Source of the DNA: a virus | Taxonomy: Duplodnaviria; Heunggongvirae; Uroviricota; Caudoviricetes | Strand: one strand, 5' to 3' | IMG/VR virus record: IMGVR_UViG_3300035208_002853 | Coordinates: 88,033-145,414 of that record | Length of the DNA: 57,382 nt | Position numbers and translations under genes: made by a program | Shown: positions 14,609 to 19,205 of the stretch, piece by piece | How positions within the stretch are numbered: position 1 is the stretch's first letter | Layout: the number at the start of each line of letters is the position of its first letter | The notes under the pieces: model-generated | Seen by the model: only the letters and a program-made list of their open reading frames with translations | Told to the model about the DNA's origin: nothing | Databases searched by the model: none

Positions 14609-15271
14609 ATGTTTGAAAAGAAAATTAAAATTAATAATGTTTTATATGACTTGAAGTATAATCCAAGTTCAAAATCTTGGATGTATCAAGAGTTAATATG
14701 TCAATGTGGTTGTGGAGGACATCTAATATATAACAAATGCCATAATCAAAATGGAATTCCTAAATATATTAAAAATCACTATTGCAAGGGTCCAATAGCA
14801 GAACAAAGGAAAGATGAATATAAACAATGGGAGAAGCAATTTGAGGGTGACTATTTGGAATATAAATATCAAATAGTAGAAGACTTTCAAAGGAGATCTT
14901 CGCGAGGAAGAGTTGGGGTCTATCATTCTTTAAAGACGAATACTTCATTATTTTATGCCTCTTCTTACGAAAAAAGAGCTATGGAAATTTTGGATACAGA
15001 TACAAACATCAAAACATATAGTAACTGTAAATTTTTTATAAATTACACAGATCCCGAAAAGAATAAAGTTCATAATTATTTTCCAGATATTTCTGCTGAA
15101 TATGAGACTGGCGAGAAAAAGATTATAGAAATAAAATCGGAATATCAAGTATTAGATCCAAAAAACCTCGCCAAGTTCGCAGCCGCCAGAGAATATTGCG
15201 GACAGAACAACCTTGAATTTGAAGTCTGGACTGAAAAAGATTTAGACCTTAAAAATAAGGGTTGTGGATGA
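14609..15271 (+). CDS. Free-standing TnsA-like PD-(D/E)xK endonuclease, putative homing endonuclease
   Basis: YFPDI...IIEIK...KFAAAREYC...FEVWTEKDL; N-terminal CQCGCG motif typical of viral homing endonucleases. Confidence 0.8.
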   Translation: MFEKKIKINNVLYDLKYNPSSKSWMYQELICQCGCGGHLIYNKCHNQNGIPKYIKNHYCKGPIAEQRKDEYKQWEKQFEGDYLEYKYQIVEDFQRRSSRGRVGVYHSLKTNTSLFYASSYEKRAMEILDTDTNIKTYSNCKFFINYTDPEKNKVHNYFPDISAEYETGEKKIIEIKSEYQVLDPKNLAKFAAAREYCGQNNLEFEVWTEKDLDLKNKGCG

Positions 15272-15364: not shown

Positions 15365-15667
15365 TATGGCGCATATACCTCTTCACAAGTTTATATTTTC
15401 TTCGTAAGTTATATTCCATTTATAAATTTTCATAAATTAACTATAACGGATGCCCACGATGAGAATCTAGTGAGGCCCAGTTATTCTCCTCCACCTAAAT
15501 GTTGCCACGAACTAAACCATTATTTAGCAATATTGTGGAACGGAGACATAACTACGTGCTGCGGAGACCTCGCCGGGGAGAATATTTGTGGGAACATTTT
15601 TAACAAAGGAATCGCGGGAGGAACGAGACGAGGCTCTCTTTGTGAGAAGTGTAATATTTATAGGTGA
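15365..15667 (+). pseudogene. Orphan SPASM/Twitch Fe-S domain, remnant of a second radical SAM gene
   Basis: C..L..YLAILWNGDITTCCGD...GNI...CEKC; no CxxxCxxC core; frame open back to a stop at 15362. Confidence 0.6.
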
Positions 15668-15720
15668 TAAAAATTTTTTATTTTTAAACTACAATACAGT
15701 TAGATTAAATAGTTGTTGAC

Positions 15721-15757: not shown

Positions 15758-16342
15758 ATGGCTTGCGGAGGGTATTCTGATCATTGTGATGTTTCCGGAT
15801 ATTATGTAGATTACCGCCCGCCGTTTTCGTATCAGAACACAACTTGTTATGTTTGGAGTAATACTAATGAGTGTGGGGAATCATATTTTGTTGACAATTC
15901 TGGATGTTATAAAAATATAAGTCATCACAACTATTCTAATTACGCAAATATACCTCATGACAATATAAATTTCAATAATGGTATATTTGGCAATGTTCCG
16001 TTTTCTAATTGGAGTAATTACACAAACTCTCCTCACGGAGATACCCCAAGTTGGAGTAATTATGTTTTTACTACAAACTGGTATAATCACTCCAACCACA
16101 GCAACAACTCGGGAAATTCTTACGTTCATATCAACTCAACGCCCCATACAGATTTGAGGCCTCATACAAACAATCCTCACGGAGACGATCCTTGGTATAA
16201 TTGGAGTAACTATCAAAATACTCCATTTAATAATGGTGTTTTCGGGAATACCCCATTTTATAATGACCCTTGGTATAATTGGAATAATTATGGGAACAGT
16301 CCATTTTCTGATTTTTGTAATCACACAGATACTTATATTTAG
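15758..16342 (+). CDS. Putative radical-SAM substrate: 194-aa protein of about 37 aromatic-X-Asn/Asp triplets (poly-triceptide precursor-like)
   Basis: Triplets such as WSN, WYN, FNN, FGN, YQN, HGD, HSN, HTD; directly upstream of an rSAM/SPASM gene; start at MACGG (ORF track 15713). Confidence 0.75.
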   Translation: MACGGYSDHCDVSGYYVDYRPPFSYQNTTCYVWSNTNECGESYFVDNSGCYKNISHHNYSNYANIPHDNINFNNGIFGNVPFSNWSNYTNSPHGDTPSWSNYVFTTNWYNHSNHSNNSGNSYVHINSTPHTDLRPHTNNPHGDDPWYNWSNYQNTPFNNGVFGNTPFYNDPWYNWNNYGNSPFSDFCNHTDTYI

Positions 16343-16357
16343 AGAGGATGTACATAT

Positions 16358-17599
16358 ATGTCTACAATTTTAATTTATCCAAAAACAACTTGCGAAGTTG
16401 GATGCGAATATTGTTTTTCTAAACCGAACGAAAAGCAAAATTATGATAAAGAAAAAATGATGGTAGTAATTAAAGAGGAAATCAGGAAAGATCGGATATC
16501 TAATAATGGCCACGATCCAACCGTTGTTTTGCACGGAGGAGAAATTTGTTTTCTTCCTTTAATTGATTTAGAATATTTTTTGAAAGAACTAGAAGATATC
16601 GGCATAATCTGTGGACTTCAAACATCATTAATGGGAATGACAAGGGATCACGTGAGACTTTTTAAAAAATATAAAGTGAGGATTGGAGTTTCGGTAGACG
16701 GCCCAAAAGAGTTGAATATTTTGAGGGGTCCAAGAAACGAAGGGCGGAATCGAGAATACCAAAACGAATTAATTGAAAACCTAAAAATACTAAAAGACGA
16801 AGGATTAAGATGGGGAACAATTTGTGTTCTTTCGAAAGCTAATGCGTCTAAAGAAAATCTTCCTGTTTTATTGAACTGGATAAGAGAAAATAAAATAGAA
16901 GCAAGATTTAATGCCATGTTTGTGCCTACTTTTGATTTACGTTTGTCAAAATGGATGTTATCTTGTGATGAATTAAAAAATGCTTGGATTGAAATATCTA
17001 GGGTCTCAATAGAAGAAAACCTTCCAAGTATTGATCCCACAAGAGATTATATTGAGTCTCTGCTTGGATACAGTACTGCATCTTGTTCTACGTCTTCTAA
17101 GTGTGACTACGCTACTACGGTATGTGTTACAGTTCTTGGAAACGGGGAAATTAGTAGATGTGATCGATGTTTACAAGATGGAGTTTATTTAAGATCTAAA
17201 GAAAAGAAAAGTACATCTAGAAGCGATATGTTAGAAAAAACCGAGTGTTCTGGGTGTAAATATTTTAATGTTTGTGGAGGAGGGTGTCCTTCTGAAGGTA
17301 TAGGTGGGGATTTTAGAAGAAAAACTTACTATTGTGAAGCTGTTTATGGAGTGTTTGAGTATTTAGAAAAACAGTTGCGGGGTATACTTCCAAATATAGT
17401 ACTCTCAATAGACGATCCAAATTATAAAAAAAATGAACCCTTTAATTGGTCAAGAAATATGCAACGTGGAACTCGTGGAAGTAGTCCACGCCCTCAAGAC
17501 TCCGACAAGCATCATCTTTGTGAACAGTCTGGGGAATGCCATGATAAAGGACACGCGAATTCTCCTCACGGGGACCATATGAATCATATTAATAGGTAG
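16358..17599 (+). CDS. Radical SAM/SPASM-domain peptide maturase with a His-X-Asn/Asp C-terminal tail
   Basis: CEVGCEYC (CxxxCxxC), LHGGE, SVDGP, SPASM C..C...CGGGC...C; ends HANSPHGDHMNHINR. Confidence 0.92.
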   Translation: MSTILIYPKTTCEVGCEYCFSKPNEKQNYDKEKMMVVIKEEIRKDRISNNGHDPTVVLHGGEICFLPLIDLEYFLKELEDIGIICGLQTSLMGMTRDHVRLFKKYKVRIGVSVDGPKELNILRGPRNEGRNREYQNELIENLKILKDEGLRWGTICVLSKANASKENLPVLLNWIRENKIEARFNAMFVPTFDLRLSKWMLSCDELKNAWIEISRVSIEENLPSIDPTRDYIESLLGYSTASCSTSSKCDYATTVCVTVLGNGEISRCDRCLQDGVYLRSKEKKSTSRSDMLEKTECSGCKYFNVCGGGCPSEGIGGDFRRKTYYCEAVYGVFEYLEKQLRGILPNIVLSIDDPNYKKNEPFNWSRNMQRGTRGSSPRPQDSDKHHLCEQSGECHDKGHANSPHGDHMNHINR

Positions 17600-17609
17600 G
17601 GAGAATAAT

Positions 17610-18407
17610 ATGTCAACTATTTTACCATCCAAATGGAATTCTTGGTTATACGAGTTTTCTAAAAAGGCTCAAATTCTTTTTTCAAGAACAGAATTTGAGA
17701 TGACTGCATCGGGGAAGAGAAAGGTTGGAACGCTTCATCTAGATCCGACCAACTTTGATACGCAACTGGAACAATTAACCAACAGGGGATTATGTTTTGT
17801 TCCAATTTTTAGATCTAAAAGAGTAGAAGGATTCAGTCATAATTTAGAAATTGAAGACAAAATATATAAAGATACAGTTGTTTATGGGGTGATTTCAACC
17901 AATTTAGAGTGCGCAAAAGAGTTTAGAGATTTATATAAAACCAAGGATTCCGTAATTAGTCCAGATCATAGAAAAATTGGAGATCTTTTGGGGTATCCTT
18001 CTTGTTGTTCGTCTTTTTTTGATGAGAATTTTAAAGATGACAAAGACCCTATTTTTAAGATGGCATCTAATTCGGACCCAGCATCAAAGAACTTTTGCTA
18101 TAAAATAAACAATCTTGTAAGAGAAAATGCTATCCATCTCAGATATTTTGGTTTTAGGGTTATACCTTGGGTTCCATGTTCATATTACTGCGGAGAAAGT
18201 TTGAAATATTCTAAACAGTGGATAGATTTAATGTATGAATTAGACCATGACGTTACCGAAAAATTACTGGAAATTCTATCAACTCCAGGCGAATTTAGTT
18301 TAGTAAACGGTCAAATGTTATGGAAATCTGATTTATTCATTGGAATGTGCGATGCGCTAGAGGATTATTATATTGAGCCCAGGAGAATAACAATTTCTGG
18401 TGAATAA
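17610..18407 (+). CDS. DUF483-like protein of unknown function
   Basis: IGDLLGYPSCC..FF and PWVPCSYYC motifs. Confidence 0.55.
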   Translation: MSTILPSKWNSWLYEFSKKAQILFSRTEFEMTASGKRKVGTLHLDPTNFDTQLEQLTNRGLCFVPIFRSKRVEGFSHNLEIEDKIYKDTVVYGVISTNLECAKEFRDLYKTKDSVISPDHRKIGDLLGYPSCCSSFFDENFKDDKDPIFKMASNSDPASKNFCYKINNLVRENAIHLRYFGFRVIPWVPCSYYCGESLKYSKQWIDLMYELDHDVTEKLLEILSTPGEFSLVNGQMLWKSDLFIGMCDALEDYYIEPRRITISGE

Positions 18408-19205
18408 ATGACCAAAACAAACATTGCCGGAATTTTTACAATAAGAAACGCGGTTGATGCTGGATATCCGTTCGTAGAGTCTATTTTATCCGCACTTTCT
18501 TTTTGTGATTCTATTCTTGTAAACGACGGAGGCTCAAATGATGGAACCCTTCAATACCTTTTTAAGTTGAAAGAATTATATCCACAAATTAAAATATATA
18601 AAATTCTAGACGTAGGGAAAGTTCGCTGGCAAGCTATAGATGATGTTTTGAATGTATTAATTAAAAAGGTTGATACTGATTGGATATTTGAACTCCAGGG
18701 CGACGAAATGTTTCACGAAAAAGATGTAAATTTAATAAAAAATATAATAAACAATACAAAATGTAATGGAATTCGTAGCTCTCGTGTAGATTTAACTTCG
18801 TGGGATACAGATGTAAATAAACCTACATATAAAATGGGAACCATGAGATTAGTAAGAAATATTGATGGTCTTACCTCTGACTGGGGAGGCGATCATTTTA
18901 CTATAAATCATAACCCTTTTCCAAGAAAAGGGTTTACTCTTCATAATGTTCCACCCGAATATGACGCCCTAAACTTAAACTTATATCATTTTTGTGATAT
19001 ATTCCCTGGAAATTCAAAAATTAAAGCGAAAAGACATGCCGAACATCTTGCGTGTACTGCTCCAGAAAGAATAAGCGCTTATGATTCAAGAAAAAATTCT
19101 CATATTCATAAAACACAATCAAAAAATATAAGTCAATTTCCTTTGTTAATGCAAGGATTATGCGGCTCGCAATATTACAATGTAAGGGAAGAATTGTTGA
19201 AATGA
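18408..19205 (+). CDS. Glycosyltransferase family 2 (GT-A fold)
   Basis: YPFVESILS...CDSILVNDGGSNDGT...DWIFELQGDE. Confidence 0.85.
   Translation: MTKTNIAGIFTIRNAVDAGYPFVESILSALSFCDSILVNDGGSNDGTLQYLFKLKELYPQIKIYKILDVGKVRWQAIDDVLNVLIKKVDTDWIFELQGDEMFHEKDVNLIKNIINNTKCNGIRSSRVDLTSWDTDVNKPTYKMGTMRLVRNIDGLTSDWGGDHFTINHNPFPRKGFTLHNVPPEYDALNLNLYHFCDIFPGNSKIKAKRHAEHLACTAPERISAYDSRKNSHIHKTQSKNISQFPLLMQGLCGSQYYNVREELLK

Follow-up and report, generated by a model that had tools for sequence, protein, structure and literature searches.

This locus raises the question of what a tailed phage makes from a protein of 194 amino acids that is built largely of triplets in which an aromatic residue (Trp, Phe, Tyr or His) stands two positions before Asn or Asp, and whose gene is followed by one for a radical SAM (rSAM)/SPASM enzyme. 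The gene (positions 15758..16342, plus strand) lies in a stretch of 57,382 nucleotides, referred to here as the window, which corresponds to positions 88033-145414 of the 145,414-bp contig C137. The original prediction held that the protein is a substrate in which many such triplets are closed into rings by the enzyme, and it placed the phage among the viruses of archaea.

Register and conservation of the triplets

The open frame carries aromatic-x-Asn/Asp triplets over most of its length. A scripted count gave 37 [W/F/Y/H]-x-[N/D] triplets without overlap, exactly the number that had been counted by hand (38 when overlaps were allowed); together the 37 take up 111 of the 194 residues. When the same residues were shuffled (n=5000), 12.2 ± 2.4 triplets were obtained (z approximately 10), with a maximum of 23 for overlapping counts. 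Controls with spacings of i+1, i+3 and i+4, and with the order reversed, were at or below expectation and enrichment was found only at i/i+2, so that this register is specific and is not a product of composition. Asn or Asp stands at i+2 of 8/8 Trp, 11/12 His, 9/11 Phe and 10/19 Tyr residues; the acceptors are predominantly Asn (28 Asn to 9 Asp), and 27 of the 37 triplet rings belong to Trp, Phe or Tyr. The frame is the sole outlier for such triplets in the 145-kb phage genome, with a z of 10.4 compared to 3.5 for the next of 329 open reading frames of at least 70 amino acids.

The protein consists of a Cys-rich N-terminal part of approximately 70 amino acids, a variable middle made of triplets, and a conserved C-terminal F-C-N-H-T-D. 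Finer details of the original prediction were recovered as well: the first triplet begins at residue 6, five Cys lie towards the N-terminus (residues 3, 10, 30, 39 and 50), FGN occurs twice (residues 77 and 162), and triplets run back to back in FSN-WSN-YTN (82-90), WYN-HSN-HSN (108-116), WYN-WSN-YQN (146-154) and WYN-WNN-YGN (172-180). A further Cys at position 187 brings the total to six, and there are only two Arg residues. The list of open reading frames offers an alternative TTG start at 15713, upstream of the ATG at 15758, but as all homologues start with M-x-C-G-G-Y-S, the ATG is taken as the true start.

Six homologues of the protein, with 44-77% protein identity to it, were found in IMG/VR contigs and among metagenome proteins. 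Codon alignments with three homologues gave dN/dS values of 0.05-0.17 at dS values of 1.5-2.9, where synonymous sites are near saturation; values this low indicate that the gene is under purifying selection and that the frame is translated. In an alignment of the window protein and the six homologues, the aromatic class was kept at 97% and the Asn/Asp class at 95% of triplet positions, while the middle residue was identical at 53%. Interchange of His, Tyr, Trp and Phe, and of Asn and Asp, is tolerated at these positions. Conservation by class around a free middle residue is the pattern expected if selection acts on the ring and on the C-beta donor. In the Cys-rich type of the protein, Cys30, Cys39, Cys50, Cys187 and His189 are invariant, as is a C-terminal F-C-N/D-H-x-D.

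Searches of Pfam, NCBIfam and PHROGs gave no real match for the protein or its relatives, the ESM Atlas gave no usable match, and BLASTN of the locus against a phage collection gave no match. The 194-aa protein had a single NCBIfam row, MmoY, whose 15 bits (E 0.008) fall short of the cut-off of 700 and were dismissed as noise. AlphaFold2, run on a shallow alignment of 15 sequences, returned a model with a pLDDT of 29.7 and without secondary structure. The model gives no sign of a self-folding solenoid and would fit, tentatively, a polypeptide that is structured by modification.

The radical SAM enzyme and its module in other phages

The gene downstream (16358..17599, plus strand) encodes a protein of 413 amino acids which was recognised as an rSAM/SPASM enzyme by its motifs and its NCBIfam matches. 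Its ATG lies 15 nt past the stop codon of the triplet-rich gene and is preceded at 8-10 nt by a GAGG-type ribosome-binding site. The CxxxCxxC motif is complete (C12-x3-C16-x2-C19), and all seven Cys of the SPASM motif are present (C249-x13-G-x4-C268; C297-x2-C-x5-C-x3-C310; C326). In NCBIfam, DynA ranked first (4.5e-26), followed by anSME, AmcB, TIGR04083, YhhB, DarW, GrrM/OscB, FxsB and DarE. The DynA (NF041298) match is full-length, yet scores 91.7 bits against a cut-off of 450, and the second-best match, to anSME (TIGR03942), scores 76.6 bits against 349. The enzyme likewise falls below the cut-offs of the triceptide-synthase families (YhhB 67.5 against 445, GrrM 47 against 310, XyeB 24 against 450) and that of HxsB (TIGR03978; 27 bits against 370, with 25-40 bits among members of the enzyme's family); the QhpD model TIGR03906 appeared as a weak match among the results for the family.

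When five divergent members of the enzyme family were compared with NCBIfam, cyclophane maturases (DynA, AmcB, YhhB, XyeB, GrrM/OscB, FxsB) were again interleaved with anSME. The solved structure closest by sequence is that of the triceptide synthase ChlB (9gm3, 8.6e-8), followed by anSME (4k36 and 4k37, full-length). On these comparisons, the enzyme forms a separate, unnamed clade in the anSME-like SPASM group that holds cyclophane synthases. The clade comprises 114 representatives at E <= 1e-30; among those homologues for which a source name was listed, not one name is informative. As the enzyme lies far under the cyclophane cut-offs and is about as close to anSME, homology does not fix the type of reaction. 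Structure prediction for a complex of enzyme and 194-aa protein gave a score of 0.00, with a pLDDT of 31 for the partner, values that speak neither for nor against binding.

At its C-terminus the enzyme has a tail (residues 395-413; 17540..17596, plus strand) with His-x-Asn/Asp triplets resembling those of the neighbouring protein, and one motif of the tail, N-S-P-H-G-D, is also present in that protein. The pattern H-x-N-x-P-H-G-D ... H-x-x-H persists in homologues with as little as 30% enzyme identity, with H404 near-invariant and D406 invariant. We conjecture that the tail is a pseudo-substrate or a segment that is itself modified. Some rSAM homologues are unusually long, and fusion of substrate to enzyme was considered for these; the idea was dropped when the extra length proved to consist of inteins in the CxxxCxxC loop. 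In homologues P0023, P0056, P0068, P0094, P0120 and P0151 the intein sits immediately behind the second Cys of the motif; in all but one of the six it is long, at approximately 320-360 residues, the size expected with a homing-endonuclease domain.

Two further genes follow on the same strand. The one adjoining the enzyme (17610..18407) encodes a DUF483-like protein of 265 amino acids with four invariant Cys (L-G-Y-P-x-C-C; P-C-x3-C). Its confident model (pLDDT 80) matched, in the AlphaFold DB, both DUF483 proteins and the DUF483-like domains of rSAM/SPASM fusion proteins; against the PDB only weak matches were obtained (2guk, Z 5.6; NleE, Z 4.7 and E 0.018). The next (18408..19205) encodes a GT2-like glycosyltransferase, also of 265 amino acids, named from weak Pfam matches below the cut-offs. 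Upstream of the triplet-rich gene there is a remnant of a second, small rSAM gene (15425..15664, plus strand) from which the C-terminal 81 residues, the SPASM part, are left. It is intact (266 amino acids) at the same spot in loci L002-L005 (L002:4089-4889) and lies outside the conserved core; an open reading frame for a TnsA-like endonuclease (14609-15271, plus strand) is found where its missing 5' part would lie. A promoter scan at the locus gave no signal above chance. In the window, the module heads a long plus-strand operon ahead of the head and tail genes, and stands outside the tail module.

A search for syntenic loci pairing a repeat-rich frame with an rSAM gene had been proposed with the original prediction. 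Nineteen independent loci with a homologous enzyme (29-85% enzyme identity, locus GC 32-51%) were assembled from IMG/VR contigs, from ENA, JGI, Logan and NCBI assemblies, from three MAG contigs labelled Dehalococcoidia, Pirellulales and Firmicutes, and from the Thermus phage Cumys. A triplet-rich frame lies directly upstream of the enzyme in 17 of the 19 (z 7-22, 167-997 amino acids, up to 147 triplets), and the i/i+2 rule is kept in spite of different repeat units. A profile of the DUF483-like partner found its gene directly downstream of the enzyme in all 19. The GT2-like gene occurs in 11 of the 19, at varying positions within the module, and is absent from eight, Cumys included. The conserved module is thus made up of the triplet-rich protein, the rSAM enzyme and the DUF483-like protein, with or without the GT2-like one, and its marks (a P-H-G-D tail on the enzyme, a DUF483-like gene downstream and a triplet-rich frame upstream) are present in the window. 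The leader peptide, leader protease and exporter of a canonical RiPP system are missing, the triplets beginning as they do almost at the N-terminus. The absence of an obvious leader, signal peptide, dedicated protease or transporter had been pointed out in the original prediction, and across the loci none of these belongs to the module.

The largest triplet-rich protein found, in L025 (identical to that of L028; L025:1966-4959), has 997 amino acids, 147 triplets and repeated Cys-rich inserts. That of L035 (L035:439-2007) has 522 amino acids and 101 triplets, with 68 of its 72 His obeying the i/i+2 rule, and Cumys_13 (L016:2928-3959) has 343 amino acids and 61 triplets, with Asp at i+2 of every one of its 54 His. 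At L012 and L033 the flank that was available shows no triplet-rich frame beside the enzyme and the DUF483 partner; the L033 enzyme itself ends in approximately nine H-G-D repeats. In L032 a triplet-rich frame of 261 amino acids (L032:3035-3820) was missed in the source annotation, where two frames of the complementary strand are given in its place, and genes of such low complexity are likely to be under-annotated.

Two kinds of N-terminal domain were seen: the Cys-rich one of the 194-aa protein, and a threefold R-P-G-S-x-W-V-E-G repeat in Cumys and L035. The three copies in the latter two have the form R-P-G-S-x-W-V-E-G...Y-L-x-Y-x-D and matched no family; they may make up a pseudo-threefold domain for docking to a trimeric tail component. 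The triplet-rich proteins of the Thermus phages and of L034 and L035 have no Cys or only one. The module of Cumys follows the baseplate and tail-collar-fibre genes, and tail-like genes are found near the module in L010 and L013.

The phage genome and its probable host

Matches to a major head protein, a tape-measure protein and an HNH protein in the window bear out the viral origin given in the original prediction. The first and last 127 bases of C137 are identical, and by this overlap the contig is a circular assembly. Its GC content is 38.5%, compared to a mean of 64% for the assembly and approximately 70% for the main contigs, among them the one with a bacterial 16S gene; this contrast indicates that C137 is a complete, large phage genome that was wrongly binned with a bacterial MAG of high GC. 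The same bin has 20 low-GC contigs (1.08 Mb) that look foreign. Outside the window, contig C200 (340 kb, GC 40.5%, 65 clustered tRNA genes) probably represents another phage, of jumbo size, that was wrongly placed in this MAG. Self-comparison of the sequence also revealed tandem repeats of 34-35 bp at positions 1-185 of the window (C137:87654-88217).

Elsewhere on C137, UDG and a bacterial-type Pol III alpha are encoded as one fused protein, and further genes encode an ATP-dependent ligase, the anaerobic ribonucleotide reductase NrdD and a DnaG zinc ribbon. The fusion protein (C137:15490-19476, minus strand; 1328 amino acids) joins a uracil-DNA-glycosylase-family part to a full bacterial-type Pol III alpha with PHP, NTPase, finger and HhH parts. 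No archaeal markers were found; the bin has no mcrA and its 16S is bacterial. The assignment to an archaeal virus did not survive, given the bacterial-type Pol III alpha, the DnaG zinc ribbon and NrdD, and given that the only cultured relatives infect Thermus thermophilus. DNA of the phage is present in landfill and groundwater metagenomes, while no RNA run was found to contain the locus. This occurrence, the bacterial replication genes, NrdD and the Thermus hosts of the relatives point to a bacterial, probably anaerobic host.

A proposed multi-site cross-linked protein and its nearest counterparts

Triceptide synthases join a carbon of an aromatic residue to the C-beta of residue i+2 (PMC11002830, PMC11499958). 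The precedents cited in the original prediction hold, as Trp and Phe are joined to the C-beta of Asn or Asp by XncB and OscB; a Tyr-Asp ring is made by YxdB, and His motifs are used by HaaB, YhhB and HtkB (PMC11002830, PMC11499958). The proven rings are thus Trp-Asn, Trp-Asp, Phe-Asn and Tyr-Asp, together with His on other acceptors (HAA, HNR, HTK) (PMC11002830, PMC11499958). Cyclophanes of three and four residues fix the peptide in a beta-strand (10.1101/2024.12.16.628070).

We consider it rather probable that the 194-aa protein is a leaderless, protein-sized substrate which is cross-linked iteratively by the adjacent rSAM enzyme, and that the chemistry is of the triceptide type. The protein would be the dedicated substrate of the enzyme encoded 15 nt downstream, which would act together with the DUF483-like protein as an obligatory partner. 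The enzyme would abstract a C-beta hydrogen of the Asn or Asp at i+2, and this carbon would be joined to the ring of the Trp, Phe, Tyr or His at i, giving a three-residue cyclophane and a loss of 2 Da per site. Many of the 37 triplets would be modified, and a polypeptide without a predicted fold would become a rigid, protease-resistant, polycyclic protein. The idea of a substrate with many sites, put forward in the original prediction, is strongly backed by the conservation of the aromatic and Asn/Asp classes and by the recurrence of triplet-rich frame, rSAM gene and DUF483 gene in 17 of 19 loci. Since leader, protease and exporter are lacking, the product would be used as a whole protein and not as a released peptide. 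It is probably a component of the virion or one that contacts the host surface, as the module lies at the end of the baseplate and tail-fibre genes in relatives such as Cumys; this is the least certain step of the proposal. Counted against the cyclophane reading are the best cyclophane score of 92 bits against 450, the two loci (L012 and L033) without a triplet-rich neighbour, the position of the window's own module outside the tail module, and the fact that characterised triceptide precursors have one to five rings and a leader. We know of no triceptide precursor on the scale of the 194-aa protein.

The main rival leaves enzyme and substrate paired and changes the bond, which would be a C-O or C-N closure like those of darobactin and dynobactin, a hydroxylation or oxidation at C-beta, an epimerisation, or a thioether between Cys sulfur and a carbon of Asn or Asp. 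The enzyme is about equidistant from anSME (an oxidase), DynA/DarE (which form C-C, C-N and C-O bonds), PapB (a Cys-Asp thioether) and QhpD, ether and hydroxylation outcomes controlled by the substrate are described for DarE and XncB (PMC11851443), and the substrate family has four Cys that never vary. We nevertheless think another bond unlikely, because six Cys are few for 37 triplets, the Thermus, L034 and L035 substrates have at most one, and neither hydroxylation nor epimerisation explains an aromatic residue placed strictly two positions before Asn or Asp.

A repeat protein that is left unmodified, serving as a low-complexity structural protein or binding metal through His, Asp and Asn while rSAM and DUF483 proteins act elsewhere, for instance on phage DNA, seems to us improbable. 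It would account for the two loci without a triplet-rich neighbour, His-x-Asp arrays could chelate metals, and homologues of the rSAM and DUF483 genes lie near deazapurine DNA-modification genes in cyanobacteria (10.1101/2024.08.14.607894). The module, however, is without DNA-modification genes, the nearest enzyme families all modify peptides or proteins, and in the other 17 loci the triplet-rich frame has stayed directly upstream of the enzyme despite complete turnover of its repeat units; the substrate motif also recurs in the enzyme's own tail. Most of the rings in the 194-aa protein are moreover those of Trp, Phe and Tyr, which do not bind metal. What His shares with these residues is an aromatic ring and not metal binding, so that the Asn-dominant variant rich in Trp, Phe and Tyr argues for ring chemistry over chelation. 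Least credible of all, and very improbable in our estimation, is that the periodicity supplies N-x-S/T sequons, or Ser/Thr sites, to the GT2-like enzyme and that aromatic-x-Asn is a by-product. Runs such as W-S-N-Y-T-N do read as N-x-S/T and a GT2-like gene does belong to the module, but the excess in the 194-aa protein (11 sequons against 6.4 expected, z 2.2) is weak and is unconserved across homologues (z 0.7-3.2), Asn is freely swapped for Asp, and the GT2-like gene is absent from eight of the 19 loci, that of Cumys among them.

If the cross-links proposed for the triplets are real, triceptide chemistry would no longer be confined to small peptides destined for export but would reach entire proteins bearing tens of rings; the phage protein would be the first protein of any virus with enzymatic C-C cross-links, and DUF483 would acquire a role. 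The system can be tested directly, as the carriers Cumys and phiMa are in culture on T. thermophilus HB8 and co-expression in E. coli works for related enzymes, and a leaderless, highly iterative enzyme would be of interest to peptide and protein engineers. A bolder extension, which we regard as speculative and on balance doubtful, is that tailed phages make protein-sized poly-cyclophanes of dozens to more than 100 rings, a new class of viral material with enzymatic C-C cross-links that would be exposed on virions or set free upon infection, and in which rigid strands would serve as adhesin or penetration elements docking onto outer-membrane beta-barrels and the P-H-G-D tail of the enzyme would be a built-in pseudo-substrate. 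Docking of this kind is conceivable because a three-residue cyclophane holds its peptide in the form of a beta-strand; darobactin, dynobactin and xenorceptide, which bind BamA, are examples.

Several known systems share features with the module. The anSME enzymes have the same SPASM architecture and oxidise Cys or Ser in C/S-x-P/A-x-R, a target that is absent from the 194-aa protein, neither Arg being in such a context. QhpD, with QhpC, belongs to a system in which an rSAM/SPASM enzyme cross-links a whole protein subunit (the gamma subunit of quinohemoprotein amine dehydrogenase) at Asp and Glu carbons; it differs in forming Cys thioethers, at few sites, in the subunit of a cellular enzyme. 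In the His-Xaa-Ser system (HxsABCD), a repeat protein of His-x-(small polar) type is accompanied by rSAM/SPASM maturases. That system is cellular, has Ser as the acceptor, and uses two rSAM enzymes and HxsD without DUF483, and the phage module does not belong to it. Aromatic cyclophane rings made by an rSAM enzyme are also found in darobactin and in dynobactin, whose maturase DynA gave the phage enzyme its best NCBIfam match; unlike the phage protein, these products are exported peptides of 7-10 residues made from leader-bearing precursors.

The likeness to triceptide systems (XncB/XyeB, OscB/GrrM, MscB/FxsB, YxdB, HaaB, YhhB, HtkB, ChlB) is closer. Aromatic(1)-x(2)-x(3) motifs are present in the substrate, they are multiple, and an rSAM/SPASM gene lies beside it; Trp, Phe, Tyr and His are all proven ring donors, Asn and Asp are among the proven acceptors, and the phage protein uses both. 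Described examples of characterised triceptide substrates have one to five rings (PMC11851443), whereas the phage proteins have 37 motifs, and up to 147 in relatives, in 194-997 amino acids. The phage system differs further in being phage-encoded, in having no leader, protease or exporter, in its apparently obligatory DUF483-like partner, and in an enzyme that falls under every curated cut-off.

The nearest counterpart is the rSAM module of the Thermus phages Cumys and phiMa (10.1101/2024.08.14.607894), which has a homologous enzyme (29% identity), DUF483 and the same gene order. In that preprint (10.1101/2024.08.14.607894) the module was read as a possible DNA modification system, and Cumys_13 was listed as unknown and its repeat not noted. 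Our literature search found no description of triceptide-type phage substrates, nor of the Thermus module as linked to its repeat protein. The Cumys substrate is nearly pure His-x-Asp, begins with a fibre-like N-terminal domain of three repeats, and is encoded after baseplate and tail-collar-fibre genes, whereas the 194-aa protein is Asn-dominant, rich in Trp, Phe and Tyr, Cys-rich in its N-terminal domain, and encoded outside the tail module beside a GT2-like gene. What the present phage contributes is the Asn-dominant, Trp/Phe/Tyr-rich substrate variant, with its Cys-rich N-terminal domain and a GT2-like accessory gene.
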